From an uncultured Spirochaetota bacterium (lineage in GTDB: Bacteria; Spirochaetota; Spirochaetia; SZUA-6; Fen-1364), in contig CAWGAA010000001.1 of NCBI GenBank assembly GCA_963820525.1, positions 2,294,203-2,358,202 of the forward strand: DNA of 64,000 nt, given 5' to 3'. Shown here piece after piece: positions 29,443 through 46,900 of the stretch (positions are counted from its first letter, which is position 1; every line of letters begins with the position of its first letter). A program made the translations under genes and the position numbers. The notes under the pieces were generated by a model, which searched no databases, had not been told where the DNA came from, and saw only the letters and a program-made list of their open reading frames with translations.

Positions 29443-32400
29443 TTACTGTTCCTTCTTATGATAGACCAGATTGAAGCGGCTCCCCGCATACCCGATGGCG
29501 ATGTCCGCGGATTGCGCAACTCCCGCGACGTAGCGGCCGATGTTCAGCGTAGAGCTGGTCACGATGTTCGTTCTGTGGTCGCGCACGGGATCGTTCACGG
29601 GGATAGTACCGTATTCCCAGTCGTCGGCGCTCGATCCGGTCCCACTCTTCACCCACGCTATCTTCAATCCACCCAGGGTGCCGACTGAAGAAGCGTTCTC
29701 GTACGATACGTACGGTATGGCGGTAGTTCCAATATACATCAGGGAAATCCTGCTCCAGGGCCCAACCGATTCTACGGAGTCGATGGTTACCGGGGCATCG
29801 AACGTATATTGCACCCCGGCGCCGGTCCCATCAACGTCATGACCATGGATGAAGACGAGGTTCCCGTCCGCGTTCTGGAAGGTCATAATGAACAGGTCGC
29901 CATACGTCGAAGATGCCGCGTCGTTGCTGTCCACCACCATGCTGACGTAGCTTCCCAGGAAGCTGTTTACGGGCTGGATGAGATCGATCTCCCACTGATG
30001 AGTAGCGCTCGGAGCGTAGGGGGCGGTAGCATTGAAATTCCCGACGGGTTGCGTGTTCCAGCCGCGGGCAATCTTCAGCGTCTTGTTGGTGTTGCTGTAG
30101 TACACGATGACGGGAACGCCGTCATCCGGGTCTATGCCGATATCGCTCCACAACCCGACGTCCTCGCTGGAGGCGTACTTGTAGTCAGGGGCTGCGCCGG
30201 CCAGGAAATCGTAGCCATCCACGACGACCTGGTTGTCGGTGAGGTGGTTCTGTCCGATGAACGTCCCCGTTCCGCCGGTGACCACCCCGTATTTCAGGCA
30301 TTTGCTCCACCCGTCGTAGTACGAGATGTACTTGACGTCGTTCGCCGGAGCGGCTCCCACCTTCACCGTGAACCGCGGGTTCTTGAACTGGAAGAGCATT
30401 TCATCCTGGCCGTCGGAGTGATTCGCTGGAGGAGGATCCGAGTTGCCTTCCCGCTCGATTTGCCGTGAGCTTCCCGTGTCGATGAAAGAGTTGAGACCCT
30501 GCCATGTCCCGGTCATATTCTGGTTTTCCAGCACAACGGAATGCCTGACGTCTACTCCTGCGTTGTTGCGGACGAACAGATCCGTATACTCGGCCGGGTC
30601 GACACCGCTCCAGATTTCGGTAGCGGCGCCTCCATAGGAGTTCGGCATGCTGTAGTACGACGCGCCGGAGTTATAGCTGGACCAGGCGCCGTAGACGTGG
30701 CTATTGGTGGGATTGATCGACATTGACGGCCACTCGGGTGCATCAGAGCCCGCGAAATAATCCCCGACGTCGAACACTGACATGTAGCGGTCGTCGTCCC
30801 AGAGGCCCGAACCGCCTTCGTTGTTATATTCCGCAGAATTGGAGTCGGTATTGTTAATGGAGGGCTGGCCGTTGACAACCACCTTCAAGTAGCCGGAGTT
30901 CACCATTTGCGTTCCGGTGAAGGTGAGGGAGGTATACGGCGATCCACTGCCGCTCACGGTCACAGTATTCTGCTGGACGGAGACCTTTACATCAGCGCCG
31001 TCGCTGGTGAAGTCGACCGCAGGGCCGCCGGAGGTGAGCGATACCTGGAAGTAATTCGCGGCCGTATTGACGACATAGTATCCGACGTTCGATGAGATCC
31101 CTGTCGGAAGCGTTGTCGCGGTAATCCACACTATCGTGCCGTTGGCGAGCCCGTGCGCTGTGGCATTCAGTCTATTGTCTCCATTGGTTGCGACGACGAG
31201 GAACGGCGTGCGGTTGATCGTGACGGTGGGAGTGTCGGTCCCGTCGCCGAGGTTGAATCCGGTCATGGTAAGGTTGGTCTCGCCCGCGTTCACGAGGAAC
31301 TTCCCATACTTTGTGCGGTTCGTCGGATACGGGCTCTGGCGGGTGATGCTCGTGATGTACGGAACCACGTCCACCTGGTAGGCGGGCTTGTTCGGGGGCA
31401 GGGTAATGGAGTAGCTCGTGCTGCCTACCGCAACCGGGACCGCAAGCTCGATGACGCCGCTTCCTGAGTCATAGTCCGCTACCGTGGTGTTGGTAGAACC
31501 GACGGTGATCGGCAGGTTGTCCCAGAGGGTCGTTCTACCCTGGAGATTCACGTCCGAAATGTGGGTCGTGTCCGCGCGCGTGCCGGTCCCGCTCAGCGTC
31601 GTGTTGTCCGCCGTCACGGCTGAACGGGTGGCTGCCTTGTCCTCTGCCACGATCCTGATGTTCTGATCGTTCACAGCGATGTGGGAGATCCGCGCCGAGT
31701 CCCAATCCAACCGCCAGACAACCGAGTGCCCGGCCTGCGAGAACGTGGAGGACACCACCGTGAACTTCCAACCGTTCGTGCCAAAGGTGTCTGACGGCAC
31801 CATGAACCCGTTCATACTGGTCCAGTTCGCGGGCGGGGAGCCCAAGGGATCGTAGTTGGCGATCCGGTAGTATGTCTGGCCTCCGATGCTGGTGGTGGGG
31901 ATGGTCGCGGCGTGCGGGAAGGTGAAGTTGTCGATATGCATCCAGATGTAAACCACTCCCTGATCGTCGCCCGTCGTGCCTCGTATGGATATCTTCCCCG
32001 AAACGTCGGGATCCGAATCGTCGATTCCCGCGAGCTCGATGTGCCCGTTTGTTTTCAAGTTCAGGTACAACGAATTGTCCGAGGCGCTGTTCCAGAAGAA
32101 GTTGTTGAGATAGGCCACCGGAGCTTTCGAGTCCGTGACCTTGATCTTGCAGACGATGTCCCTCTGGATGTGCTGGCTGTCGGTGAGCCTTGTCGTCTCC
32201 TCGGTGGTATCCCAGATGACGGATCGGAAGGTCCTCGTCCCGTCCGTGATGGCCGAAAGGGCCGTGGCATCCAGGAGTAGGGAAGTGATCGGCGTGCCGG
32301 TGCCGCCGTTTCTTACGACGTAGGTTCCTACTGCCGAGAGGCTTCCGGTGTTCGGGCCCGCGCTCACCTGGGTCTCCAGAATCCCGTTTCCGCCCGTGAT

Positions 32401-35400
32401 CTCGTACAGGATGTACATCGGAGCCGCTTTCACCTTGTAGCTGGTGGAGACCGAGGTCAGGTACGTGACGGGGTTGGTGCCCTGCGTGAAGAGGAACTTC
32501 TCTCGCTCAGTGCTGCTGGGCGTTTCATCGATGGACCCGTTCTTGTCCAGGTCCGTTCCCAGCCACATGGCGCCAAGCTGAGGCCCGCTGTTCTGCACGG
32601 AGGTGGCAATTTGATAGTGGGCGGCGTTCCCCGCTTCATCGTAGACGACGTAGTGGATCTCGATGGGCCCGTCCGGGATATTCGCCGAGTTGACGTCCAC
32701 GTACCAGTCGTAGGTGTCTCCCACGGTCTGCCTGAGCTTCTCCACGTAGCCGTCGCCGTCGTCGTTGAGCACGGAGGCACCGTCGTGCGACTCCGTTATG
32801 TTCTTGTGATCGATTGAGATCGCCAGGTCTATGGAGTACGCCGTGAGCCCCTGGTCCACGACCCCGTCCGCCCAGGTGATTGTGCCGCTTCCAGGGGTCC
32901 AGGTGTCGATTGTCCTGATGGTGCCGCCGATCGCGATTTTCTGACCCTTGTTGATCAAAGCGGCCGCCGGCGCGGCGATAAGGCTTGCGTCCACAAGGCT
33001 CGTCTGCGAGGGTCGCGTCCCGGTGCCCGTCCGCACGGGCTCGTATCCGCTGAAGGCGAAGTCGCTCAAATACGCCTTCGTGTTGCCGGCCAGGGGGTTG
33101 TACATGCGGTCGTTGGCGGGGTTCCCCATGCCTCTTCGGATGAAGTAGACCTCGACCCTGTCCACGTCGGAGCCTTCATCGAGAGCGCTCCCCGTGAGCT
33201 TGCACCATCCGTTGTCCTGAACCATGAACTTGGTGAGGTTGTCGAAATCCGGTCCTGTAGGCGCCGTGGGCGGCTTGGTGTCTATGGTGATCCGCATGTC
33301 CAAAGAGCTGGACTTGGGCTGCGCCGCCACGTCCACGGCGGCAAGAGTGAAGTTGAGCGGGACGACGGAGTTTCCCGGAGAATCGATTTCGACGTTCAGG
33401 TCTATCCGCTTGTAGAGCCCGTTCGTGTATGGGGGAACGGACGGGGTAACCAGCGTGAATGAACCGGTGTCCCCGGTGTAGACGCTGCCGTTCCAGAAGA
33501 TCGACTTCGAGATGGGGGCGGAAAGCGACACGCTGGACAAAGCGGATTCGTTTTCAATGCTCCCCTTGAGGTACCAGTTGCCCTTAATATACATTCCCGC
33601 GGTATATGTAACCGTGGTGGTGGGATCTCCCACTTTTTCCAGATACAGGGGAACGGTGGAGCCGATCTTCGGTACGTTCTTGTCCACAAGAATGGTCCTG
33701 GGCTGTGACCACGGCCCGAGGGTCCCGTTGATGTCCTTGGCCCGGACGCGGAAGCTGATCGGATTGGGCGTCTCGCCCGAGGGATCGAATTCCTGCGAGG
33801 AGTTGATGACTTCGTACCAGTTGTTGGAACCGATCACCGTGTGGCCGTTTCCGCCGTTGTACCAGTCCGTGCCGCCCGCCGTGTCGGCTGCGGTAAACTG
33901 CCCGTCATTGTTGCAGTCGATCTGCATGGCGACTTCCGCCACGCCGTCGTCGTCGATGGCGCTTCCATAGATGCGGATGGAGCCGCCGAGGGTCATGTTG
34001 GCGTCCGGATAGGAGACGCTCGCTACCGGTTTGTCGCCGTTGGGGTCTATCCTGAGGCTGTAGGGGTAGATGGTGAAGTCGGTCTCGCCGATGGACACGT
34101 CTCCCGACCAGGAGACGGTCCCGCTGGCCGGAGTCCACCCCGTGATGAGCCGCGCGTTGTTTCCGATGAACACGACCTGGCCCACCGCAATCCTGGTATT
34201 GTTCTGGATGGCCGCGGAGCTGAGGCTGGTCGGGTTGGAGCGCGTCGCTCCGGCGCCCGTAATGGGCAGGCTCTCCGTGCTGTTGCCCGCCTTGTCGGTG
34301 GCTCTCAAGACCATGGGGAACACGAAGAGGTCTACCCCGGTGTACGAATCGTGAATGGCGGAGACGTCGGTGTACACCTCGTATTCCTGGCTGGTTCCCA
34401 CCGCCACATCGGCGCCCGTCCAGGTGACGGTGCCGGCGGCCGGGGTCCAGGTTGCGATTACGCGATATGCGCCATTGATCTTGATCGTATTGCCCACCGC
34501 GGCATTGGGATTGCTGACCAGGGCTGCGGCGGTGAAGCTCTTCTCCTCTCCGGTCGTCCTGTCCACCAATCCCGAGTACATGGAGGAGTAATTGTCGATC
34601 TTGCTGGGGTTCAGGAAAGGTATCTCCCAGGTGTAGACGGTGCCTCCAACAGCCGTTGGAGACTGGCTCGTGTAGTTCTTGCCCAGTCGATACATGACGG
34701 TGTCCAGCCCGGAGCCGGAGTCGCTGGCCGTCCCTTTCACGGTGACCTCGCCGTTGACAATCGCGGCATTCACCGGGGTCAGGAAGCCGAGGCTCGGGGC
34801 GGAGTTATCCACAAGAATGGTCCGGGTTGCCGTGGAGGCCAGGCCTGATCCGTCCGTGACCGTCGCAACGACGTCCTTGGCGCCGTCGGAAAGCGCGGTA
34901 ACGTTCGTGACCCCGGTTTCATACGGGGTGTATCCCGGCCACGCCACGGGGCTTCCCACGACGCTTGCCGTTACGTTTCCGATTCCGGGGATGGCCACGA
35001 CAACGGAAGCGACGCCGTTTTCATCCCGCGCGGAGTACCGGATGTTGAACCGTCCCGTGGGCCCGCCAAATGGCATGTTCGTCGTGAGGCTCTTGGCGGC
35101 CAGGTGCACGAAAACGCCGCTTCCCGCGCTGGTGATGTCCACCACGGGGCCGCCCGATGTGGCAGAGACCTGGATCTGGGTGGACGTTGGGACCGCGACG
35201 ACGAAGTAGGTGGTGTTTGCCGAGATCCCGCCCGGAAGCCCCGTTGCGCTGAAGGTTACCGTGTTGCCCGAGGCAAGCCCGTGCGCGGAATCAGTGGTGA
35301 TAATGTCGGAGGTGTCGTTGGCCGTTGCAGGAAGACAGGTTTCGATGGTGATCGTCGGATCGACTTCAGGAGTCTTCGTGTCCACCTTGAAGGTCACAGA

Positions 35401-38400
35401 GGTGTCGTCCGCCGCGTCCTGGATGCGCGGCTCGTTCGACAGGTCCGTCGTGAAGACGGTAGAGGAAGCATCGGTAACGCGGAAGTACAGGCGCTTGGTC
35501 CCGTCTCCGGAAGAAGCGTCGTAGCTCCAGCTTGCGTCCGCCGTCACGGTCTGGAAAGCGGAGATCGTCACATCCGTTCCATCGCTGGTGTAGTCCAGCT
35601 TTGTGCCGTCCAGGGTCTGCGAAACCTCGAAGTGGGTGGCGTCGAGGCCTTCAGAGATGACGTAGTAGCGCGTGTTGGCCGAGATTCCCGCGGGCAGGGC
35701 GGTGCCGCCGAAGTAGACGGCGGTACCCGCAACAAGGCCGTGCGCGGACCCTGTGGCGAACACGTCGGACCCGGAGTTGGGAGTTACGGTAACTCCATCG
35801 AAAGCGGCCTCCCCAATCTCCAGTTTCGTCACCCCGTCGTCGTCGCTCACCGTGCCGTACACGGTATTGGTGAGCTTGAGGGTCGTCGTCCCATTGGGGT
35901 TCACGTTGGTCAGCTTGATCGTCGGCCGGTCGCTCTGCTGATCGATGAAGAAGCTCCTGTCCGTGTATTCGGGGTGCTGCGCATTGTAGGCGCTTTTATT
36001 CCCCGCGATGTCGGTTGCCATCGCGCGAAGAGTGATGCCGTACTTGGTGCCGCTTACCAGTGTGGATGCGTTCACGACGTCGGCCGCCGTCGTGTCGAGC
36101 GCGGCCAGGTTCCAGGAGTAGCTTCCCGTGGGGCTCAGGGTAAGGGCCACCAGAGGCGCCTTGACGTCCACTCCGTCCGTGGAGAAGTCGAGCCGGGCGC
36201 CGTTCGGGGTGGCCGAGACCTCAAAGTGGGTGCTGTCCAGATTTTCGGAGATTACATAGTACGACGTGGCTGCGCTGATTCCCGTGGGAAGCGTGGTCCC
36301 GGTGAAGCTCACCACGTCTCCGGCGGACAGGTTGTTCGCCGCCGTGGTCGTGAAGATATCGGTGAGGTTGTTCGCCGTGACAGTGGTATCCTTGACGATA
36401 TGCAGTGTGAGGGACTGCACGGCCACGTTATCCGAGCTTGTCCCGGTTACAGAGATCGTCTTGTTCGTCGTGGCGGAAGCCGCCGGGGTGAGGAAGCTCA
36501 CCGTCGGCTTCACCCTGTCCAGGCTGATGTTCCGCGTTGCGGTGGAAGTCCTTCCCGCTACGTCGGTCAATGTGGCCGTCAGGGTGCACACTCCGTCATC
36601 CAGGCCGCTGACTGACAGGGGCGCCGCGGAATCGTCCCATGTGCCGTTGTACACGTCACCGCCCGTCCTTGTCAGGACCCCATTGGATGCGTGCAGCGCG
36701 GCGTCCGCGAGACTGACGGCAATAGAGGAGACGCCGTTGGTGTCAGAGGCGGTCATCGAAACGGTGACTGCGCCGTTCCTGTAGGCGTTTGCCGTGGGAG
36801 CGGTGATGGAGCCGCCAGGCGGGGAGTCATCCTTCCAGAACGTCACGCTCGCCGTACCGGAAATGTTTCCCGCCTTGTCCTTGGCCTGGCATTGCAGGGT
36901 CTTCTGGCCCTCGGAACCGAGGGTGATGGTGGCGGTCCACGCGGTGCCGTTGTACACGCTGGCCGTCCAACCCACATCGGTGGACAGCTTCATCTCCACC
37001 GTCTGGAGGCCCGCGGGGCCGGCGTCGGATGCCGTTGCCGCGGCGGAAAGCGAAATCCCGGAGAAGACGTCGGTGAGAACCGGCGCCGTTATGACGGGAG
37101 TGTTCGGCAGGCTCTTATCGATCACCAGTGTGTAAATGGAAGAAACGCTCGCGCTTCCGGCTGCATCGTGCGAGATCGCGCGGTAGAGGTAGGCGCCCTC
37201 GGATGCGGCGGTCACCCACGTTGCGTCCCTGCCCCAGCTCCACGTTTCGGGGGTGGTCGTGATCGTGGCGACGTTCGTGTAGGTCAGGCCATTGTCCGTG
37301 CTCTGCTCCACTGTCACGTTGACGAGGCTGCCATTGTCCGCGGCCGCTCCGGCGAGGGTAAAGGCCGTGTTTGTATAGACGGTGACGCCCGGAGTGTACG
37401 GATTGGCGGGGTTTGTGCCGACCTGGAACGTGATGTCGGACAGCGTGGGCGGCACCTGATCCAGGTGAACCGCCTGGCTCGCCAGCGGAGAAGTGACGTT
37501 GCCGGCATTGTCGACGGCGCGCACATAGATCGTGCGGTCATCCGTGAACGAGCTTGAATCGTAGGTGTAGCTCCAGGTCGCGGTTCCGCTTGCGTCCTTC
37601 CAGTCCCCGGATCCCGGCTGGCCTGAAAGCATCACTGCCACCTGGACCTTGGAAAGCCCGCTGGTAGCATCGGAGGCGGTGCCCGAGATGCTGAAGGCGC
37701 CTTTCTTCCAGTCACCGTCTGCCGGTGAACCAATCGCCGCCGTCGGAGCCGCCGTGTCGACCTTTATGGGCACATCCACGGACGTAGACCTTCCATAGAT
37801 GTCGGTGGCCCGTATGGAGACCTTCTTGCTCATCCCCTCACCGATTGAAGCGGTTGGGATGGAGTCTGCCCATGACATCCTGCTCGCCGTGACGCCCGCC
37901 CCATCGCTCGCAAAGTCCACCTTGGCGCCTCCCGAGGAGGAGGAGACCTCGAAGGTCGTGGGATCAAGGTAGAGCACGTAGTACGGCGTGCCCCCGTCGA
38001 GCCCGCCGGGAAGGGTCGTTCCGCCGAAGTAGACGACCTGGCCGGCGGAAAGCCCATGCGGCGCCGCGGAAGTGAAAATCCCGGCTACATGGTCAGCGGT
38101 AACGCCGATGGCCGTGTCGTCGACCTGCATCTTTTCCCAAGTGCCCGGCGTGCCGGGATGGAATACCTCGATGTATTTCACTTCGGGAGTGCCGGGATTG
38201 GAATCATGATCCCAGGTGGAAAGGCCGTTTAAGTCGATCCCGGTGCCGTTGACCGCGAGGTTTGCGCCGGTAACGTACGAATTGACGGCAGGGGAGCCCA
38301 CTGTCACCGTAGGCGCGTTCTGGTCAACGGCAAACGCAACGTCCACCGTCAGGCTGACAAGCGCCGCGGCGTCCGTCGCCCGCACATGCAGAACGTGGTT

Positions 38401-41400
38401 CGCCTCCGCCAGTCCCGTGTCCGGGCCTTCGCCGTCGGTGTCGAGATCCACGGTGGCGGCCCAGTTGCTGCCGCCCGCAGCAAGGGCATAGGCTCCGCCG
38501 TCGACGGCGTACTCGACGCTCGCAATCTGAGACGCTTCGGCGACCGTGCCGGAGATCGTCATCGTCGGGCCCTGAGTCCAGCTCGAGGCCCCTGGCGCGG
38601 TCACGGCTACCACCGGTTTCGTGGTGTCGATGCGCACAAGCCGGGAGACCGTGGTCGTCTTTCCTGCCGCGTCGGTTACCGTGATCCGATATTCGTATTC
38701 TCCGTCGTCATTATGCGTTCCGGTGTTGTCCACCGTCTTGGGATAGCTCCACGGCACATTGCTCTTCCCGGTCTTGGGCTGCGTGTCCACCGTGGCGTAC
38801 GCTCCCCCGTCCCGGGAGGCCTCCACCTTCACGCTCACAACTCCGTTGGTATCCGAAATCGTTCCCCCGATAGTGAAGTCCGCGGTCCTGTAGACCAGAT
38901 TCGGGGTAGCGATCTGATCCTCGATAATCGAAGGCGCAGAAAGATCGTAGCTGAACGCCACGCTTGACGTCGCGTCGGGGTTCAGCCCGTCGGAGGCCTT
39001 CATATACAGGGTCTTCGGCCCTTCCCCTCCGCCGCTCACGTCTATCGTCGCATTCCAGGCAAGCCCGGTCAACGCGATCGGCGTCCAGGTGGCGTTGTCA
39101 AGAGACCACGCTAATTGCGTCACGCCCTTTCCCGCGCCGTCGCTCACCGTGCCGCGGATCGTGTAGTTCGCCGCATCCGCCCAACCGCCGCTTGTCGGGT
39201 CTGTGATCGTCAAGACAGGGCTCGATGTGTCCACCATCGCCGTTCGGGTCGCGCTGGTGGTCTTGCCCACGACGTCACGCACCGTGATGACGTACTCGTA
39301 GTTGCCCTCGCTCAAGAGAGTTGTTCCCGGCGCCGCGGGGTCTCGCGGCAGGCCCGTCAGGCTCCACGCCTGGCTTGTCACGCTGTAGTTCTGGTTGAAC
39401 ACTTCAATGGCCGTTCCGCCGTTCTTGCTCTGCGTCACCGTGACGTTGGCAAGCGCGTTGGTATCTTCCGCGGTCGCGTCCAACGTGAAGACCGCGTTCT
39501 TGAATTGCAGCCCGGTGGCCAGACTGATCCCGCTTAAGCTGGGATTCGACTGGTCGATCTGGAATGTGCGGGTTGCCACACCGCTGGTGTTGCTCGCGTT
39601 GTCGGTGGCACGGATGCTGAGGGTCTTCTGGCCCTCGCCGAGAGTGTTGAGATCCAGAGTCGCACTCCAACTCGAGGTACCGGTAGCGCTCTGCCAGGTG
39701 GTGCCGTTGGTGGACCACTCCACTGTAGCAACCCCGCTCAGGGGGTCGGTGGCCGTGCCCGATGCGTTGTATGCGGTTCCCGACAGCCACGCGCCCACGC
39801 CGGGGTTGGAGATGCCGACAGTCGGCGCCGTGGTGTCGATCTGCACGGTGCGGGTCACCACGTGGGTGCGCCCCGCAACGTCGGTCAGGGTGGCCCTGTA
39901 CTCGAAAAGCCCGTCGGCAAGCAGGGAGTCTGCAGGGGTTGCCGGGTCACGGGGCAGACCGGTGACGCTCCAGGGCTGCGGGGGTTGGGACCCGGAAATG
40001 CCCTGGTTGTACACCTCGACGAAGGTTCCCGTACCCTTTTTCTGCTCGACCTTGATGCTGGCAAGAGCATTGGTATCAGCCGCCGTCCCATCCATTGGGA
40101 AGAGCGCGCTTCTGCCCACCACGCCGGTGGCGATATTGGTCACGGTAAGGACGGGGTTCGCCTGGTCTATGCCGAAATCGCGCTGAACCGTGGCGGACCA
40201 GTTGCCCGCCGCGTCCACCGCCTTCACGGAGAGGCGGCGGTTGCCTTCCCCAAGGCCGCTTACGTCCATGAGGCCGGACCAGAAGGTGGTTCCGGTGGCC
40301 GTGTTCCAGGAGGAAAGGAGAGCAGGCGGAGTAGCGAGCGAATCTCCCGCCCACCAGTAGACCGCGGCCACTCCGGTTCCCGTCCCGTCCGAGGCATTTC
40401 CCGTTGCCGTGGAGGTGGAGCCGGAAAGCCAGGAAGAGCCCGCAGGAGCGGAGACGGCGAGTGTGGGCCCCGTAGTATCCACGACAAAACGATAGTCGGC
40501 CACGGTGGTCTTGGCGAAGCGGTCCGTGGCCCGGAACTTGTAGGTGTGGCTCCCGTCGAAGGTGTGGCCGGTTGTGTCGACGGCCACGGGGTAGCTCCAC
40601 GCGCCGCCGGGCGCGCTCAACACGGTCCAGGAGGCGCCGCCGTTGGTGCTCACCTCGACGTCGGACACGGTGTCGCTGTTCAGATCTGCAAGGCCGTTGG
40701 CATCGGAAGCGGTACCGCTGATGGCAAAGCCGGCGTTCACCACGGCGTCCTGGGCCGGGCTCGTCACCGAGGTGGAGGGCGGGTACTTGTCCACGACGAA
40801 GTACACGGGACCGATGGCATTGCTTGCGAACGGCAGGCCCATCTTCGCGGTGGCGAGGTCCGAGGCCTGGATGTGGAGGTAGTGCATGCCTTCGGCGAGG
40901 GAGGCTATGTTGTGCTCGAAGCTCACCACCTTGCCGCTGGGCCCCTTCTGGCTGACCGCAGCCCATGAGGCGGCCGCGTCGACGCTTATCTCGATGGTGG
41001 ACGAGTCGAGGCTGTCATCGTCCGTTGCGCTTCCCTGCACCTTTGCGTTGGACTCGAGGAGGTTTCCCCATCCCAGCGCCGGGGTGTTTCGGGCGGCGCT
41101 CAAGTTCGTGAGGCTGATGACGGGTTTGTCTGAGGACTGATCCACGGCCAGGGCCTGGGCGACTTCCTGCGTGTTGCCGGCCAAATCTATGGCGCGGATC
41201 CATGCATTGGTGACCGCGAGGTCGGTGAAGGTCGTGGTATCGATGACGAGGCTCGGAGTCGTCTTGTTGGTGGTTATCTCGGCAAAGGCGCCGCTGTCGC
41301 CATAGCGGTACCAGACGGTGGCCAGCCCCGTCGTATCGGAGACGGCCACGGTGAGGGTCACGATGCCGTTGACGGTGTTGGTGCCGATCACGGGCGTGAG

Positions 41401-43635
41401 CGACGTGAAGGTGACGGTGGGCTTCACCCTGTCGTATACGACGGTCCGGCTCACCGCCGCGGCGGTCTTGCCGGCCACGTCCGTGACGGTGATCGTATAC
41501 TCGAAAGTTCCGTCGGTCTCGGCGCCGGGCACGCTCCAGCTCCAGGCCTGGCTCTTTCCGCTCAGGGCCTGGTTGAGGACGGTGGTGGAGGCCCCGCCGT
41601 TCTTCTTCTGCGTGATGGTGATGTTGGCCAGCGCATTGGTGTCGGCGGCGGTACCGCTCAGGCTGAAGGCGATATTGCGATACGCGGGAGTCGGCCCGAT
41701 GGAGGTCTCGGTCAGGGTGGGGTTGGCCTGGTCGAGGAAGAAGGATCGGATTGCAACGGCGCTCTGGTTTCCGGCAAAGTCGACGGCAACGGCGCGCACC
41801 GTGTACTGGCCTTCCGTGGCGAGCGGAAGCGTCGTGACCCACGAGGCGTTTCCGGTGAGGCGGTTCCACGTCGTGAAATCGGCCGGCGGGGTCGCGGAGG
41901 AAAGCCCCAGCCACAGGTAGATGTAGCGCACGTCCCCCGTGTTGTCGGAGGCGGTTCCGCTGATCGTCGTGCTGTTGCCGGTGACATACGAACCGGCGAG
42001 CGGCGAATCGATGGAAACGGTGGGGGCGCTCTCGTCTATTATATAGTGGAGCGTACGCCGCGCGATGGTGCCGGCGTCGTCGGTGGCCTGCAGGTCGAAC
42101 CAGATGTCGGTGTTTCCGGCGGCAAGAGGAACCTGGACATAGTACCAGCCCGGATCGACGCTGTCGGCGGCCGAAACAGTCCCGGCCAGGGCGGCCCCGC
42201 CTGAAGTGAGGGACGATGAGGCCGTGAAGGCGTTTATCGCATTGTCGTCGGTTGCATGGGCGCGAATCTCGATTCCCGACTGCCCGCTTCCGCCCAACGG
42301 TCCCGCCGTGAAGGTTTTCCGCGTGATCAGGGAGAGGTCGTCGGGCAGCACGCTGTCGATGCGGGGCGCCCCCGAGTCCACGAGGAAGCCACAGGTGATC
42401 TCGGTCGTGTTGCTGGATCCCGTCGATTTGGCGCTCACCTTCACCTTGTAGCGGCCGCTTGAGATGTAGGAGCCGCCCACCTTGGGCTCGATCTGGAAGC
42501 TCACGGAGCTCGAGATCGAGGTCCACGTCACGGCCCCTGCGTCGACGTTCGGCAAGGCGGGCCACGTGGTGACGGTGGAGGGGATGATCCATGCCTTGAT
42601 CGAGGTGCCGTCCACCGGCGTTCCGGCGGGACCCGGATTCGCATAGCCGGTTATAGGCACCTTGTTCCCGATGACATTGCTGGTGATCGCCAGGCTGGGG
42701 TCGAGGTTGGAGAAGTGAAGGACGGGAAGCGTTGCATCTGCTATCTTGTCGAAATCCCCGAACTTGGGGCTCCCCGTGATGCCGATGCGCAGGGCCTGCA
42801 GCATCGCGAAGGTGATATTGCCGGCCGTGCCGCTCTGGGTCTGATCCACCTTGCCGATCTCGTCGGTGGCCGGAAAGAGCAGACCGGGTGTAAGGGCGGC
42901 CCAGATATCCTGGGAATGGTAGTAGTAGGTGTTTGTGTTTCCCGCCTTGTCGGTCGCCTGAATGGCGTACCTGTAGGTTTGATTGTCGGGACGGGCGCTC
43001 GTGATGAAGCGGGTGGACCACGTGTTGGTGCCGTCCGCCAACTTGGTCTCCAACACGCTGTTGTCTGGCGCCAGAAGCTGGACATCCACATCCACAATGG
43101 GGGATCGGTCCCACACCTCACCCTTGACGTCGATGTAGTCGCTCACGATGGGCTTGGAGGTGCCATAGCCCTGGGGCACCGTCACCAGCACCGTCGGCGC
43201 GATGTTGTCGATATAGGCAAGGAGGAGGGCCTCGACTTCCTTGCCGGAGCCGTCCGTGGCGGTAACCGTGACTTTCTGCTCCCCGTCGGGCAGGTTGTCC
43301 GCGCTTGCCGTGCCGGTGGGGATGTCGATGGTCCATGCACCGCCGGAGACCGTGATGTTCTTGGTGACGGCGCCGGATGACCCGACGTATCGCACGGTAA
43401 CCTTGGCCAGGGAAAGGTCGTCCGCAGCGGTACCCTTGACCGTCAGGGGCCCCTTGACGTACGAGTTCTGCTGGGGCGAGCTGATCGCCAGGGAAGGCGG
43501 ATTGATATCGACCTTGTCTCCCAGGCCGGGCTTCAGCAGGTCGCAGGTATTGAGAGACAGGGACGCCAGGATGATGAGGGACACCCGCGCCAATGCTCGG
43601 AGGCGCGCAAATTCACTTTGGCTCCTCTTTTTCAT
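29443..43635 (-). CDS. Giant (~4,730 aa) cell-surface protein with a lipoprotein-like signal, more than 20 tandem bacterial Ig-like domains, five 'HGL' repeat modules, and a non-Ig C-terminal ~600 aa.
   Basis: Start reassigned to ATG 43635 (MKKRSQSEFARLRALARVSLIILASLSLNTC) with GGGAGGAGG SD. ~100-aa Ig periodicity (VDTTxPTV..SxPxxxxxxxG...SGTAxD). Alternating two-domain supermodule (...FxIDQxNPxL / TAADTNALAxIxVxQKKNGG). Confidence 0.8.
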   Translation of the reverse strand: MKKRSQSEFARLRALARVSLIILASLSLNTCDLLKPGLGDKVDINPPSLAISSPQQNSYVKGPLTVKGTAADDLSLAKVTVRYVGSSGAVTKNITVSGGAWTIDIPTGTASADNLPDGEQKVTVTATDGSGKEVEALLLAYIDNIAPTVLVTVPQGYGTSKPIVSDYIDVKGEVWDRSPIVDVDVQLLAPDNSVLETKLADGTNTWSTRFITSARPDNQTYRYAIQATDKAGNTNTYYYHSQDIWAALTPGLLFPATDEIGKVDQTQSGTAGNITFAMLQALRIGITGSPKFGDFDKIADATLPVLHFSNLDPSLAITSNVIGNKVPITGYANPGPAGTPVDGTSIKAWIIPSTVTTWPALPNVDAGAVTWTSISSSVSFQIEPKVGGSYISSGRYKVKVSAKSTGSSNTTEITCGFLVDSGAPRIDSVLPDDLSLITRKTFTAGPLGGSGQSGIEIRAHATDDNAINAFTASSSLTSGGAALAGTVSAADSVDPGWYYVQVPLAAGNTDIWFDLQATDDAGTIARRTLHYIIDESAPTVSIDSPLAGSYVTGNSTTISGTASDNTGDVRYIYLWLGLSSATPPADFTTWNRLTGNASWVTTLPLATEGQYTVRAVAVDFAGNQSAVAIRSFFLDQANPTLTETSIGPTPAYRNIAFSLSGTAADTNALANITITQKKNGGASTTVLNQALSGKSQAWSWSVPGAETDGTFEYTITVTDVAGKTAAAVSRTVVYDRVKPTVTFTSLTPVIGTNTVNGIVTLTVAVSDTTGLATVWYRYGDSGAFAEITTNKTTPSLVIDTTTFTDLAVTNAWIRAIDLAGNTQEVAQALAVDQSSDKPVISLTNLSAARNTPALGWGNLLESNAKVQGSATDDDSLDSSTIEISVDAAASWAAVSQKGPSGKVVSFEHNIASLAEGMHYLHIQASDLATAKMGLPFASNAIGPVYFVVDKYPPSTSVTSPAQDAVVNAGFAISGTASDANGLADLNSDTVSDVEVSTNGGASWTVLSAPGGAWSYPVAVDTTGHTFDGSHTYKFRATDRFAKTTVADYRFVVDTTGPTLAVSAPAGSSWLSGSTSTATGNASDGTGTGVAAVYWWAGDSLATPPALLSSWNTATGTTFWSGLMDVSGLGEGNRRLSVKAVDAAGNWSATVQRDFGIDQANPVLTVTNIATGVVGRSALFPMDGTAADTNALASIKVEQKKGTGTFVEVYNQGISGSQPPQPWSVTGLPRDPATPADSLLADGLFEYRATLTDVAGRTHVVTRTVQIDTTAPTVGISNPGVGAWLSGTAYNASGTATDPLSGVATVEWSTNGTTWQSATGTSSWSATLDLNTLGEGQKTLSIRATDNASNTSGVATRTFQIDQSNPSLSGISLATGLQFKNAVFTLDATAEDTNALANVTVTQSKNGGTAIEVFNQNYSVTSQAWSLTGLPRDPAAPGTTLLSEGNYEYVITVRDVVGKTTSATRTAMVDTSSPVLTITDPTSGGWADAANYTIRGTVSDGAGKGVTQLAWSLDNATWTPIALTGLAWNATIDVSGGGEGPKTLYMKASDGLNPDATSSVAFSYDLSAPSIIEDQIATPNLVYRTADFTIGGTISDTNGVVSVKVEASRDGGAYATVDTQPKTGKSNVPWSYPKTVDNTGTHNDDGEYEYRITVTDAAGKTTTVSRLVRIDTTKPVVAVTAPGASSWTQGPTMTISGTVAEASQIASVEYAVDGGAYALAAGGSNWAATVDLDTDGEGPDTGLAEANHVLHVRATDAAALVSLTVDVAFAVDQNAPTVTVGSPAVNSYVTGANLAVNGTGIDLNGLSTWDHDSNPGTPEVKYIEVFHPGTPGTWEKMQVDDTAIGVTADHVAGIFTSAAPHGLSAGQVVYFGGTTLPGGLDGGTPYYVLYLDPTTFEVSSSSGGAKVDFASDGAGVTASRMSWADSIPTASIGEGMSKKVSIRATDIYGRSTSVDVPIKVDTAAPTAAIGSPADGDWKKGAFSISGTASDATSGLSKVQVAVMLSGQPGSGDWKDASGTATWSYTYDSSSFTDDRTIYVRAVDNAGNVTSPLASQAVHLDQVPPTLSDITFQVGTNPANPYTPGVTVYTNTAFTLAGAAADNGSLVNVTVEQSTDNGLTYTNVATITTTPETWSWGRDATWVTAASEGAYLYRAISHDAAGSASVSSIYTLVIDKSLPNTPVITAPVLTDVFSGISLSAAATASDAGPAGLQTVEMKLSTDVGWTASVYNGTAWTATITLGSEGQKTLQCQAKDKAGNISGTASVTFWKDDSPPGGSITAPTANAYRNGAVTVSMTASDTNGVSSIAVSLADAALHASNGVLTRTGGDVYNGTWDDSAAPLSVSGLDDGVCTLTATLTDVAGRTSTATRNISLDRVKPTVSFLTPAASATTNKTISVTGTSSDNVAVQSLTLHIVKDTTVTANNLTDIFTTTAANNLSAGDVVSFTGTTLPTGISAATSYYVISENLDSTHFEVSATPNGARLDFSTDGVDVKAPLVALTLSPTGSYSWNLAALDTTAADVVNASTLVSGTKYGITLRAMATDIAGNKSAYNAQHPEYTDRSFFIDQQSDRPTIKLTNVNPNGTTTLKLTNTVYGTVSDDDGVTKLEIGEAAFDGVTVTPNSGSDVFATGSAHGLVAGTAVYFGGTALPAGISANTRYYVISEGLDATHFEVSQTLDGTKLDYTSDGTDVTISAFQTVTADASWSYDASSGDGTKRLYFRVTDASSTVFTTDLSNEPRIQDAADDTSVTFKVDTKTPEVDPTITIETCLPATANDTSDIITTDSAHGLASGNTVTFSATGLPGGISANTTYFVVAVPTSTQIQVSATSGGPVVDITSAGSGVFVHLAAKSLTTNMPFGGPTGRFNIRYSARDENGVASVVVAIPGIGNVTASVVGSPVAWPGYTPYETGVTNVTALSDGAKDVVATVTDGSGLASTATRTILVDNSAPSLGFLTPVNAAIVNGEVTVKGTASDSGSGLDTVMYRLGKNYTSQSPTAVGGTVYTWEIPFLNPSKIDNYSSMYSGLVDRTTGEEKSFTAAALVSNPNAAVGNTIKINGAYRVIATWTPAAGTVTWTGADVAVGTSQEYEVYTDVSAIHDSYTGVDLFVFPMVLRATDKAGNSTESLPITGAGATRSNPTSLSSAAIQNNTRIAVGQVVFIGNNARLITGWTPASGTVSWSGDVSIGETDFTIYPYSLRIDPNGDKPVASVSYPDANMTLGGSIRIYGSAIDDDGVAEVAMQIDCNNDGQFTAADTAGGTDWYNGGNGHTVIGSNNWYEVINSSQEFDPSGETPNPISFRVRAKDINGTLGPWSQPRTILVDKNVPKIGSTVPLYLEKVGDPTTTVTYTAGMYIKGNWYLKGSIENESALSSVSLSAPISKSIFWNGSVYTGDTGSFTLVTPSVPPYTNGLYKRIDLNVEIDSPGNSVVPLNFTLAAVDVAAQPKSSSLDMRITIDTKPPTAPTGPDFDNLTKFMVQDNGWCKLTGSALDEGSDVDRVEVYFIRRGMGNPANDRMYNPLAGNTKAYLSDFAFSGYEPVRTGTGTRPSQTSLVDASLIAAPAAALINKGQKIAIGGTIRTIDTWTPGSGTITWADGVVDQGLTAYSIDLAISIDHKNITESHDGASVLNDDGDGYVEKLRQTVGDTYDWYVDVNSANIPDGPIEIHYVVYDEAGNAAHYQIATSVQNSGPQLGAMWLGTDLDKNGSIDETPSSTEREKFLFTQGTNPVTYLTSVSTSYKVKAAPMYILYEITGGNGILETQVSAGPNTGSLSAVGTYVVRNGGTGTPITSLLLDATALSAITDGTRTFRSVIWDTTEETTRLTDSQHIQRDIVCKIKVTDSKAPVAYLNNFFWNSASDNSLYLNLKTNGHIELAGIDDSDPDVSGKISIRGTTGDDQGVVYIWMHIDNFTFPHAATIPTTSIGGQTYYRIANYDPLGSPPANWTSMNGFMVPSDTFGTNGWKFTVVSSTFSQAGHSVVWRLDWDSARISHIAVNDQNIRIVAEDKAATRSAVTADNTTLSGTGTRADTTHISDVNLQGRTTLWDNLPITVGSTNTTVADYDSGSGVIELAVPVAVGSTSYSITLPPNKPAYQVDVVPYITSITRQSPYPTNRTKYGKFLVNAGETNLTMTGFNLGDGTDTPTVTINRTPFLVVATNGDNRLNATAHGLANGTIVWITATTLPTGISSNVGYYVVNTAANYFQVSLTSGGPAVDFTSDGADVKVSVQQNTVTVSGSGSPYTSLTFTGTQMVNSGYLKVVVNGQPSINNTDSNSAEYNNEGGSGLWDDDRYMSVFDVGDYFAGSDAPEWPSMSINPTNSHVYGAWSSYNSGASYYSMPNSYGGAATEIWSGVDPAEYTDLFVRNNAGVDVRHSVVLENQNMTGTWQGLNSFIDTGSSRQIEREGNSDPPPANHSDGQDEMLFQFKNPRFTVKVGAAPANDVKYISYYDGWSKCLKYGVVTGGTGTFIGQNHLTDNQVVVDGYDFLAGAAPDYKYASSEDVGLWSDIGIDPDDGVPVIVYYSNTNKTLKIARGWNTQPVGNFNATAPYAPSATHQWEIDLIQPVNSFLGSYVSMVVDSNDAASSTYGDLFIMTFQNADGNLVFIHGHDVDGTGAGVQYTFDAPVTIDSVESVGPWSRISLMYIGTTAIPYVSYENASSVGTLGGLKIAWVKSGTGSSADDWEYGTIPVNDPVRDHRTNIVTSSTLNIGRYVAGVAQSADIAIGYAGSRFNLVYHKKEQ

Positions 43636-43828
43636 ACCGGCCTCCTCCCGATGACGGCGCTCCCGGTTTCCGGCAAGTCGAGGCTGTTTCCCTGTTCTTA
43701 ACCTCGCCTGCCGCCCGCCCACATACAGTATCGTCAGCTCGCTCACCGGGCCCACATGGGCAAACCATTAAAGTCTACCCCGTTTTTCTTCGATTTCATG
43801 AACAAATTCCTTAACATCCGTTAAGCGC

Positions 43829-43911: not shown

Positions 43912-46900
43912 ATGGAAGACATGAGTGGAGCGAACCGTCGAATCTTGAAGAGATGTCTCCTCTCCCTCTCTTTTTTGCTCGGCTTTCAGGCAGCCTCTTT
44001 CGCCGCAGGGTCGAAGGAGGCCGACTTCAAGAAGACGGACGGCCGCGACAACTGGGAGTACACCTATGACATCTCCACGATGGCGCCCGGAAAGTACAAC
44101 CTGATCGTCGAGGGCAAGGACAAGGCCGGAAACGTCTCCACCGCGGGCCCTTACAACGTGTATATCGATCCGAAATCCGACCTGCCCGTGGCCGGCATTT
44201 CCAACCCGACGCCGGGCCTGCGCGTGGGAGGAGATCTCCACATCGTCGGCACCTGCGTGGACGACGATGGAGTGGACCGCGTCGAGGTCAAGCTTGACGA
44301 CGGGGAGTTCGTCAAGGCGGACGGCAGGGAGTACTGGTCCTACTCCCTGGAGGCGGCTTCCATGGCCGACGGCCGCCACACGGTGAGCGCCCGCGGCGTG
44401 GACATCAACGGCCTGGTGGGAGAGCCGGTGAGCGTTTCCTTCAACCTCGATACGCACAGGCCGGTTATCGCCATCGTCTCCCATAAGAGCGGGACCATCG
44501 TATCGGGGACGGTCACTCTTTCAGGAACCGCCACGGATGCCAACGGGATCAAGAGCCTCGCCTGCAGCCAGGACAACAAGAAAACATTCCGGGAGCTTCC
44601 CCTCCGGCGGGGGAAGGACGACACCTCGGCGCAATTCGAGCTCACCGTGGATACCAAAAAGCTCGCCGATGGCCCGTACGCCTACTGGTTCGGCAGCCTC
44701 GACATGACGGGATCCACCGGATACACGGCGTTTCTCCTGTTCGTGGACAACACGGGCCCCTCCATCGAAATCTTGAAGCCGAAGAGCGACGAGAAGGTGA
44801 GCGGCAGGGTCGCCGTCATAGGCAAGATCACGGAGCGCATCGGCATCAAATCGTTCTCCTACGACGGGGGTGAGGCAAACAGGGGCGCCATAGAACTGGC
44901 CCCGGGCAACCCCTACTGGATCCACGAGTTCGATTTTTCCAAGCCGCGCGCATCCTCCGCGCGCATCCTCTTCACCGTGGTCGACCTCGTGGGAAACACA
45001 ACGACGAAGGATCTCACCGTGCAGATCCTCCCCGACGAGGCGGACCTTCCCGTCGTGACGCTCCGCTCGCCGGCGGCGAACGGGGTCTATCCCGCCGATG
45101 TCCTTTTGTCCGGCTCGGTCCGCGACGACGATGGAGTGAAGGCAGTGCAATACTCCATCGACGGAGGGAAACCCGTCGTGCTCGATTCCCGGGAGGCTTT
45201 CTCGGCGATGCTCACGGAGCTTCCCGCCGGAAAGCACAAGCTGGCCATCCATGGAGTCGACACCAACGACAGACCGGGAAAGGATGTCACCGTCGAGTTC
45301 ACCTCCCGGGGAAAACCTCCGGCGGTCACGGTGGAAAGCGTTTCCAGCGGGAAAGAGAGCGTTCCCTTCAGGCCGGGCTTCGAGATAGCCCGCGACAAGG
45401 GAGCGGTCCTCGTCGGCAGGATATCGACCCTTGGCCAGCTGAAGAGCCTGGAGTGCTCCTTGAACGGCGCTCCAGCGCAGAAGCTCTCCACCAAGGGCGC
45501 CGACAAGGCCGGTGAGGCTTCATTCGAGATCCGCATCCCCCCGACGGTCTCCTTCGGCATGGTGACGCTTTCCGTGCGCGCGACGGACCAGTCCGATCAG
45601 GTGGGCGAGTTCAAGAGCATCATCCACGTGACCAACTACTCCAAGCGCAACATCGAGCCCGGCATCTACTTCCTGCAGACGCGCGCTCAAGCGGATGGTA
45701 CGATTCTCTTGACTCCTGAAATGCCCCTGGTGGGGATCTTCACCGGGGAAGAAATACGCTCCGTCAGCATCGAGCCTCCCTCCGACGTGCTTTCCATAGC
45801 CTTGGACGGAGAGAAGATCACGGTGAGCCCGCGCGGAACGGGCGCTGCGGGCCCCCTCCACGTCAAGGTGGTATCGGCCAAGGGGCGCGTCTTCACCTCC
45901 CCCGAGCTCGGATTCCAGGCCGACACGAGCGGAGGCGCCGCTTCCGCAGCCATCGATTTCTCCCGCATCGTCCAGGGAAAAGACTCCTTCGAGTATTCCC
46001 CGGGAATGCGTCTCGTGATCGATAGGTCGACTCTCCTCACGGGGACTGCCGCGATTGCCGCGCAGGTGAAATCCGCCGAGTATGCCCTCCAGGGCGGGCC
46101 CGCGCGAGGCTTCGGCTTGAAGAAGCTCGACACGGCAGGCCAGTACGGATTCGAAATACCCCTTCCGCCCGAACTCCCGTACGGAAAGATCGATCTGCGC
46201 ATGGCCGTTACGGATGCAAGCGGTCAGAAAACCGTGCTTTCGACCTCTTTCTTCCGGGTTGAAAAGGAAAGCGGGACGGACAATGACGGGGAAGGCATTT
46301 ACCTCGCCGACTCCCGCATCGACTCGACGGGGGCGCTTCTCCTCGCTCCCGGCGAAAGCATCGGCGGATACTTCAACGGCCGTCCGGTCAAGGAAATCAG
46401 GCTCGACCCCGACACTCCGCTTCTTTCCGCCGCGGCCGATGGCAACTTCATCCGGCTCTCCGCGGTCAAGGAAGGGATGCCGGCGAGCGTCCGCCTGCGG
46501 CTGACCACCGTGGACGGCGACTTCTTCCAATCGGATCCCTACACGGTCCGCTCGGACGCCGGGGCGCCCGCCGTCACCGTGGACTCTCCCCGGACGGGAG
46601 ACTGGGTGGGGGCACGGCTGAGGCTGAAGGGATCAGCCTCGGATCCCAACGGAATCGTGAAGCTGGAATACGCCCTGAACTCAAGCGACGCCTTCACCGC
46701 AATCCCGCCGGCCGGGGGGAGCGGGTCGTCCGGCTTCGATATTCCCCTCGATCTGGCGGACGTACCGGACGGGGACGTGGGCTTGACGGTCCGCGCCGCA
46801 GACGGCGCAGGGCGGCAGAGCGTGGTCTCGCTTCGGTTCATGAAGGACTCCGAGGGGCCGGCGATCTCGCTGGTAACTCCTCCCGCCGAAGACCCGGTGA

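Follow-up and report, generated by a model that had tools for sequence, protein, structure and literature searches.

A predicted six-stranded beta-barrel module in a giant Ig-repeat protein of a spirochaete belongs to a large uncurated domain family carried mainly by phage virion proteins

Five copies of a module in a giant open reading frame

The stretch of DNA analyzed here, referred to as the window, comprises 64,000 nucleotides from an uncultured Spirochaetota bacterium (assembly GCA_963820525.1, contig CAWGAA010000001.1, positions 2,294,203 to 2,358,202 of the forward strand) and harbors on its minus strand a giant open reading frame (ORF) that encodes ~30 immunoglobulin (Ig)-like repeats, five beta-barrel modules, three repeats that we call WTP repeats and a C-terminal domain of ~510 amino acids (aa). 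A first-pass annotation made from the letters of the sequence had pointed to five copies of an unrecognised module of ~70 aa, interspersed among the Ig domains. The five peptides it quoted are all present in the 4770-aa ORF where it had placed them (aa 1889-1955, 2466-2531, 2665-2729, 2818-2881 and 4196-4256; window 37891-38091, 36163-36360, 35569-35763, 35113-35304 and 30988-31170), but the size needed correction to ~80 aa, with the copies spanning 77-83 aa by the limits of a family hidden Markov model (HMM) that was built mostly from proteins other than the giant protein. With this HMM, each copy scored 82-91 bits (independent E-value of 1e-25 to 1e-28), and no sixth copy was found in the giant ORF or elsewhere among the ORFs of the window. 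The ORF, its modules and the domains adjoining them are as follows (window positions):

29443..43755, minus strand: giant ORF, continuous, 4770 aa counted from a GTG (4770 codons)
31786..43503, minus strand: array of ~30 Ig-like domains that hosts the modules (aa 85-3990, period of ~100 aa)
37876..38112, minus strand: module 1 (aa 1882-1960; 84.6-86.1 bits)
36154..36390, minus strand: module 2 (aa 2456-2534; ~82 bits)
35551..35799, minus strand: module 3 (aa 2653-2735; 85-88 bits)
35101..35331, minus strand: module 4 (aa 2809-2885; 88-91 bits; phrog_4711 with E 2e-10)
30976..31203, minus strand: module 5 (aa 4185-4260; 85-88 bits; phrog_4711 with E 7e-10)
29446..30975, minus strand: C-terminal domain of ~510 aa (aa 4261-4770), directly following module 5

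Pairwise identity among the five copies is 38-52% for protein and 52-62% for DNA, and Tandem Repeats Finder reported no DNA-level tandem repeat, from which we conclude that the module duplications are old rather than recent. One copy, module 2, carries AANNL where the others have AHGL, the His of which is at least 90% conserved across the family; this copy still scored ~82 bits.

Recognizing that Thr, Ser, Gly and Ala are abundant in the giant protein, and that profile searches returned spurious matches to antibody and neocarzinostatin chains, one may argue that the similarity of the five segments is merely compositional, as in Thr/Ser/Gly/Ala-rich extracellular sequences in general, or that the segments are divergent Ig domains. 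A compositional signal is difficult to reconcile with 82-91 bits for every copy, with exactly five matches and none elsewhere in the window, and with homologues of the module that number in the thousands, while the module itself, when examined for membership in Big_7 and Big_13, matches neither an Ig profile nor the Ig fold, its predicted fold being a confident non-Ig barrel. We thus rejected this explanation as exceedingly improbable. That independent PHROG profiles matched modules 4 and 5 also places the similarity among the modules far beyond chance.

Fold of the module and its relation to known families

Modeling of a single module with AlphaFold2 (AF2), a check that the first-pass annotation had proposed, yielded a confident barrel for module 1, with a predicted local distance difference test score (pLDDT) of 93.8 and a predicted template modeling score (pTM) of 0.83. 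In a Foldseek search of the PDB with the module, UBA1 and UBA6 ranked first (E ~1e-2). Among the structural neighbors were tailspikes and depolymerases (4ru5, 8bke, 4y9v and 7w1c), 4hiz, GH110 galactosidases, the capsid decoration protein 8eci, the P22 coat protein and its I-domain (5uu5, 2m5s) and generic barrels of the L3 / EF-Tu domain-2 type. Judging from these models, the module is predicted to adopt the six-stranded beta-barrel of FCCH and of phage insertion domains.

In the isolated modules, Pfam found only sub-threshold matches, to E1_FCCH, End_beta_barrel and DUF6385, and NCBIfam yielded nothing meaningful. To widen the comparison beyond the window, 492 near-full-length modules were taken from the best 150 proteins, and a 68-member alignment (A2) was built from these, with the consensus ...AHGLxxGDxVxFxxTxLPxGLxxxTxYYVxxxxANTFQVSxTxGGxAxDxTxxGxG.... 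Below the Pfam thresholds, PF12195 (End_beta_barrel) was matched by 12 of the 68 members (best E 7e-4) and PF16190 (E1_FCCH) by 9 (best E 0.0019), with no other family recurring in more than two of them. A viral protein with two modules (locus L019) reached 22.2 bits with PF16190, and whole multi-copy proteins reached a best E of 1e-5. A human UBA1 FCCH fragment was checked against the PDB, and an alignment of 21 sequences of E1 FCCH was built. Aligned by hhalign against this set, A2 gave an E of 1.3e-4 over 46 columns, pairing HGLxxGDxVxF with HGFExGDxVxF and TFQVS with TFSI.

Taken together with the fold, these sequence links render a distant homology of the module to FCCH and to the endosialidase barrel probable, albeit not proven. 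Several results weigh against this kinship: 1) no Pfam gathering score was reached, as exemplified by 14.2 bits for module 1 with PF16190 (E 0.046; threshold of 29.5 bits) and 12.9 bits for module 4 with PF12195 (threshold of 35 bits); 2) the hhalign probability was only 54% over the 46 columns; 3) the leading Foldseek matches had an E of only ~1e-2. It is owing to these figures that we call the FCCH homology no more than probable, with convergence on a simple barrel being a possible alternative.

At the sequence level, profile searches of PDB sequences revealed no solved structure as a member of the family, the antibody and neocarzinostatin matches mentioned above being the only ones. Among PHROG profiles, modules 4 and 5 matched phrog_4711, 7765 and 9370 (E 2e-10 to 6e-8); phrog_9370 is annotated as tail fiber protein, phrog_38233, in which the module is likewise embedded, is a tail-fibre family, and phrog_4711 and 7765 are listed as of unknown function. 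Since these alignments extend over no more than the module, ~65 of 296-578 profile positions, they signify sharing of a domain rather than membership of the whole protein; the profile matches thus point to a domain common to PHROG families and not to the giant protein being a tail fibre. The module was therefore aptly called unrecognised insofar as no model of Pfam-A or NCBIfam matches it at threshold, and no confident match with an assigned function was found in Pfam and NCBIfam (Gene3D and SUPERFAMILY were not covered), yet its kind is known and it already resides within PHROG families. At the level of sequence, the module defines a separate and uncurated family, new as such but of a familiar kind, the FCCH-like or insertion beta-barrel of phage structural biology. 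In the literature on FCCH with phage or tail fibre, we did not find a description of this family, but FCCH-like domains on siphophage tail tubes are reported.

Placement of the modules in the Ig-like array

An Ig HMM derived from the protein itself gave 32 matches in the giant protein, including halves split by modules. For the nesting analysis, the Ig HMM was rebuilt from 18 repeats remote from the modules, and each host region was scanned with and without its module. The intact host of module 1 was matched as two complementary halves (HMM positions 2-37 and 42-102), which became one full-length match of 42.2 bits upon excision. In the host of module 2, the Ig HMM bridged the module as one long insertion with 13.6 bits, rising to 27.4 bits after excision, and Pfam Big_5 matched 5-96 of its 105 positions across the junction (24.4 bits; cut-off of 23.6), but only after excision. 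Similarly, the host of module 3 was split into halves (positions 6-50 and 42-100) when intact, and yielded a single match of positions 5-102 (24.3 bits) when excised. Module 4, on the other hand, is followed by a complete Ig match (positions 6-102) that was unchanged by excision, placing it between two Ig domains without nesting. As for module 5, it is located within or beside a TIG-like domain just upstream of the C-terminal domain, with TIG matches being weak regardless of the presence of the module.

From these scans, we conclude that modules 1-3 are nested in Ig domains as predicted by the HMM; the description of the modules as interspersed among Ig domains is thus apt for module 4, whereas modules 1-3 sit inside them. 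The evidence for nesting is that of the HMMs, as an AF2 model of the Ig host together with module 2 reached a pLDDT of just 39.9. The arrangement corresponds to that of tailspike insertion domains, namely a six-stranded barrel predicted to be spliced into a loop of the host domain. It also fits the record of the fold, since the P22 I-domain is an insertion domain, as are FCCH and the barrels of endosialidase and tailspikes.

Distribution of the family in phages and spirochaetes

The main home of the module family is the exposed surface of tailed-phage virions, comprising tail fibres, baseplate, tail tube, sheath and capsid. When 1.84 billion cluster representatives (50% identity clusters) were searched exhaustively with the HMM, 12,628 of them matched at E<=1e-3 and 2,062 at E<=1e-10, and single proteins carried as many as 32 copies. 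Among 51 sampled carriers of 250-1350 aa, Pfam recognised almost nothing, and the PHROG classes assigned were tail fibre, baseplate wedge, central fibre J, tail sheath, head and head-decoration. Against cultured phages, tblastn returned 53 records, which belong to Microbacterium phages and to Sinorhizobium phage phiLM21 and bear the annotation of minor tail protein, tail fiber protein or hypothetical, and structural matches in BFVD included the tail spike of Gordonia phage Skog, the tail fibre of Leptospira phage LE3 and structural proteins of cyanophages. Three metagenomic proteins, P0017 (2842 aa), P0010 (2987 aa) and P0015 (2272 aa), consist nearly entirely of 26-32 tandem modules; P0017 stands for a cluster of 14 members, the contigs of which reach 85 kb.

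We also searched with a strict DNA pattern encoding H-G-L-x2-G-x2-V-x6-L-P-x-G-x6-Y-Y-V, for which ~0.03 occurrences are expected by chance in 596 Gb if uniform base composition is assumed. Of the loci that it located, 22 are viral (2.9 million contigs scanned) and 12 come from genomes (32 million contigs scanned), a set that the fixed spacing of the pattern biases towards the window's own module subtype. The module-bearing ORFs at the viral loci encode 190-760 aa. One of these (L027) is a fusion of the module and a major tail protein, and in another (L026) the module is part of a tail fibre. A third (L034:4799-6034, plus strand, IMG/VR contig 3300020048_003371) encodes a P22-like major head protein (phrog_283, weak PF11651) with the module inserted at aa 236-316, which is the position of the coat-protein I-domain. 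In L020 and L021, the module is joined to a domain resembling tail-fibre assembly proteins (phrog_1084, phrog_3304, L-shaped tail fiber protein assembly). A viral protein of ~190 aa, with one module (aa 27-109) followed by an assembly-type domain, recurs in L021, L024, L025, L031, L032, L033 and L038 (ORFs of ~191 aa) as well as in L020, the PHROG match of the second domain having been checked for L020 and L021 only.

Among the 12 genome loci, 9 belong to Spirochaetota (Treponemataceae, Treponematales, Spirochaetaceae and Spirochaetales), and in nearly all of them the module lies within an ORF that fills the 8-kb locus and is homologous to the window protein. The best homologues of the giant ORF show ~40% identity over 1969 aa (Spirochaetaceae UBA1306) and ~40% over 995 aa (a metagenome-assembled genome of Treponemataceae); with the whole giant protein as query, no relative was found in the genome contigs. 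The first-pass annotation had asked whether modules co-occur with Ig arrays in other giant proteins. They do so in giants of the spirochaete type but not beyond that lineage: the module is accompanied by this particular Ig repeat in 5 of the 25 proteins of at least 2000 aa in the top list, one of which is the window protein itself (P0011), and the majority of carriers are either proteins of phage virions or proteins composed solely of tandem modules.

N-terminus, further repeats and genomic surroundings

Additional features of the giant ORF and of its neighborhood are listed below (window positions):

43636-43755, minus strand: 40 codons from the GTG of the mechanically called ORF to the Met of the public record
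43543..43635, minus strand: candidate lipoprotein-type signal peptide, MKKRSQSEFARLRALARVSLIILASLSLNTC, read off the translation
34351-34542, minus strand: WTP repeat 1 (aa 3072-3135)
34042-34230, minus strand: WTP repeat 2 (aa 3176-3238)
32806-33003, minus strand: WTP repeat 3 (aa 3585-3650)
43912-49230, plus strand: second Ig-repeat protein of 1772 aa, divergently transcribed (Big_7 E 2.6e-85, 8 stretches)

The public record P0011 (4730 aa), which comes from one NCBI/ENA contig of 3.2 Mb, is 100% identical to the giant protein from Met41 on, and Met41 (window 43635) is the probable true start. The Met-started protein opens with a lipoprotein-like signal ending in LNTC. Judging from this N-terminus (MKKRSQSEFARLRALARVSLIILASLSLNTC), which would carry a relaxed spirochaetal lipobox, the giant protein is probably a surface lipoprotein; if the signal peptide is indeed of the lipoprotein type, the protein would be located on the cell surface. 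In a Pfam scan, the only families recognised in the giant protein were those of Ig domains, namely Big_7 (E 4.5e-42, 12 stretches), Big_13 and Big_3_2; neither a ThiF/E1 domain nor a pectate-lyase or beta-helix domain was found in it.

The giant ORF is flanked by cellular genes, encoding an amino-acid permease, an RraA-like protein, solute-binding proteins, a PBP5-type carboxypeptidase and an ABC ATPase. The region is not a prophage. We also considered a prophage tail-fibre gene fused by misassembly, and rejected it in view of the cellular neighbors and of the same architecture recurring in other spirochaete genomes. The divergently transcribed 1772-aa protein contains zero copies of the barrel module by the family HMM.

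The WTP repeat is ~60 aa long and unrelated to the barrel module, with the pattern G..I.IGG..R.I..WTP.SGT.TW...V..G...Y.I. A weak fourth copy is found at aa 4083-4118, and the repeat is conserved in the spirochaete homologues L008, L009, L012, L014, P0013 and P0040. No Pfam or PHROG match was obtained for the WTP repeats, and no PHROG match for aa 3660-4060.

Proposed role of the modules

We surmise that the module is, on balance, an accessory ligand-binding knob on the surface, its ligand most probably being a surface polysaccharide. As envisaged here, each module would fold independently as a six-stranded beta-barrel of ~80 residues and belong to one structural superfamily with ubiquitin-E1 FCCH, the endosialidase barrel, the insertion barrels of tailspike depolymerases and the FCCH-like decoration domains of siphophage tail tubes, to which it is probably distantly homologous. 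The N- and C-termini of the barrel are likely close together, seeing that every relative with a solved structure is inserted in a host domain, and the barrel could consequently be spliced into a loop of another domain. The carrier, a ~4700-aa probable surface lipoprotein, would form a long surface-anchored Ig rod, from which the five barrels may protrude as side knobs, three from loops of Ig domains and two from places next to Ig or TIG-like domains. Variable loops of the barrel would then carry specificity, with the knobs adding weak multivalent adhesion. We infer both surface exposure and glycan binding of the modules here, and deem weak multivalent binding most likely by analogy with characterised relatives and from the preference of the module for phage receptor-binding proteins. 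A precedent is offered by KP34gp57 and its tailspike relatives, whose groove for polysaccharide is made complete by the barrel insertion domain and whose activity drops when residues of this domain are mutated (PMC10653864); this groove-completing six-stranded barrel belongs to tailspikes with intra-chain catalytic sites (PMC10653864, 2023). Accessory domains on phage particles have also been reported to mediate carbohydrate adhesion (PMC7602432).

Three observations count against a ligand-binding role: 1) family-wide, conservation falls on residues (H, G, LPxG, YYV, FxVS, GG) that look structural, unlike those of a binding site; 2) the many long tandem arrays of the module alone fit a structural bead as well as a lectin; 3) no glycosidase domain that the barrel might complement is recognised in the giant protein. 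The chief competing explanation is that the module is a purely structural bead or spacer, a robust small barrel that, in the manner of Ig domains, would lengthen or stiffen extracellular fibres or would stabilise assemblies, as does the I-domain of the P22 coat, with no ligand at all. Such a bead would account for the proteins with 26-32 tandem copies and little else (P0010, P0017 and P0015), and tandem arrays are indeed common, as judged by 392 of 661 inter-module gaps being <=15 aa among the top 150 proteins; glycines, prolines and hydrophobic residues make up the conserved positions, and the P22 I-domain is among the structural neighbors, I-domains being described as capsid stabilisers (PMC7602432). 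In the giant protein, however, three copies are predicted to be nested sideways in Ig domains, where they add no length to the rod; in phages, the module favors receptor-binding proteins, and its closest characterised phage relatives take part in polysaccharide binding. We consider the bead an unlikely explanation, albeit one to be taken seriously, and retain the ligand-binding knob as our working view.

Another explanation pertains to the end of the protein, where module 5 and the following ~510 aa might together form a barrel-plus-catalytic head akin to those of endosialidases or tailspikes, binding and cleaving polysaccharide. The C-terminal domain is conserved in other giants, being 29% identical to the C-terminal end of P0149 and, for the last 125 aa, 62% identical to P0051, and repeated 'G.y.s...D..g.p.i.Y......L' motifs suggest that it may be a beta-propeller. 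The order of module 5 and the C-terminal domain recalls the barrel-plus-propeller of endosialidases. A catalytic head would be in keeping with module 5 being directly upstream of a conserved domain without a family, with the endosialidase barrel PF12195 being the commonest weak Pfam match, with 4hiz and GH110 galactosidases among the structural neighbors, and with barrel insertion domains that complete catalytic grooves in tailspikes. Nonetheless, the C-terminal domain matched nothing in Pfam, PDB sequences or PHROGs, be it a sialidase, any other glycosidase family or a solved structure, and the other four modules are far from it, in the region of the Ig array. Accordingly, we regard a catalytic head as very unlikely.

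Comparison with known systems and significance

The FCCH domain of E1 (PF16190; PDB 2v31, 4p22, 6dc6) shares with the module the core motif HG[LF]xxGDxVxF ... TFx[VI] and, like the nested modules, is inserted in another domain, the inactive adenylation domain of E1. It differs in being devoid of the LPxG[IL] and YYV motifs and in residing in an intracellular eukaryotic enzyme, whereas the module is found in extracellular or virion proteins, here an Ig-repeat protein that is probably on the surface. The barrels of tailspikes and endosialidases (PF12195; 4hiz, 8bke, 4ru5, 4y9v, 7w1c) likewise are inserted in a host domain and reside on phage receptor-binding proteins, with a documented contribution to polysaccharide binding, but their sequence similarity to the module is sub-threshold. 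In addition, their host is a beta-helix or beta-propeller enzyme in which a single copy builds the catalytic groove, in contrast to the five copies of the giant protein, which have Ig domains as host and no recognised enzyme.

A paper of 2026 (PMC13576161) describes an FCCH domain that decorates siphophage tail tubes externally. This FCCH-like N-terminal decoration domain (PF08813 class; PDB 9n71, 9jlf; PMC13576161) faces the outside of the virion, and our module itself is found in fusion with a major tail protein in L027. The tail protein gp15 (10lj_C) has the motif VITCAASHGLVVGDVVMFT in common with the module, but its match is confined to the first third of the domain (E 0.08) and it represents a different sequence family. 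A further parallel is provided by the accessory Ig-like domains of phages, which, according to Fraser et al. 2006 as relayed by PMC7602432, are similarly promiscuous over tail fibres, baseplate wedge, major tail, major head and decoration proteins, with the same proposed role of weak carbohydrate adhesion; those domains are Ig sandwiches, while the module is predicted to be a closed six-stranded barrel.

One may combine these threads into a single scenario, wherein the barrel would be the large prokaryotic and viral sister group, and possibly the source, of E1 FCCH, captured by Spirochaetota from phage receptor-binding proteins to serve as glycan-binding knobs nested in Ig domains of giant surface lipoproteins, with module 5 and the C-terminal domain forming an endosialidase-like barrel-plus-propeller head. 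As a whole, we hold this scenario to be rather improbable.

None of these findings overturns current understanding. The points that we consider modestly new are the size of this uncurated family, the probable kinship to E1 FCCH and the predicted nesting in Ig domains of spirochaete giants. Although present in more than 12,000 protein clusters (50% identity), the domain lacks a curated model; its carriers include many phage tail fibres and other receptor-binding proteins without any Pfam match, and a family of the Pfam type would help phage annotation and host-range work. The link to E1 FCCH, if borne out, offers a concrete candidate origin for a poorly understood eukaryotic domain. For the spirochaetes, the module family marks giant Ig-repeat proteins, probably located on the surface and bearing phage-like knobs, as candidates for adhesion.

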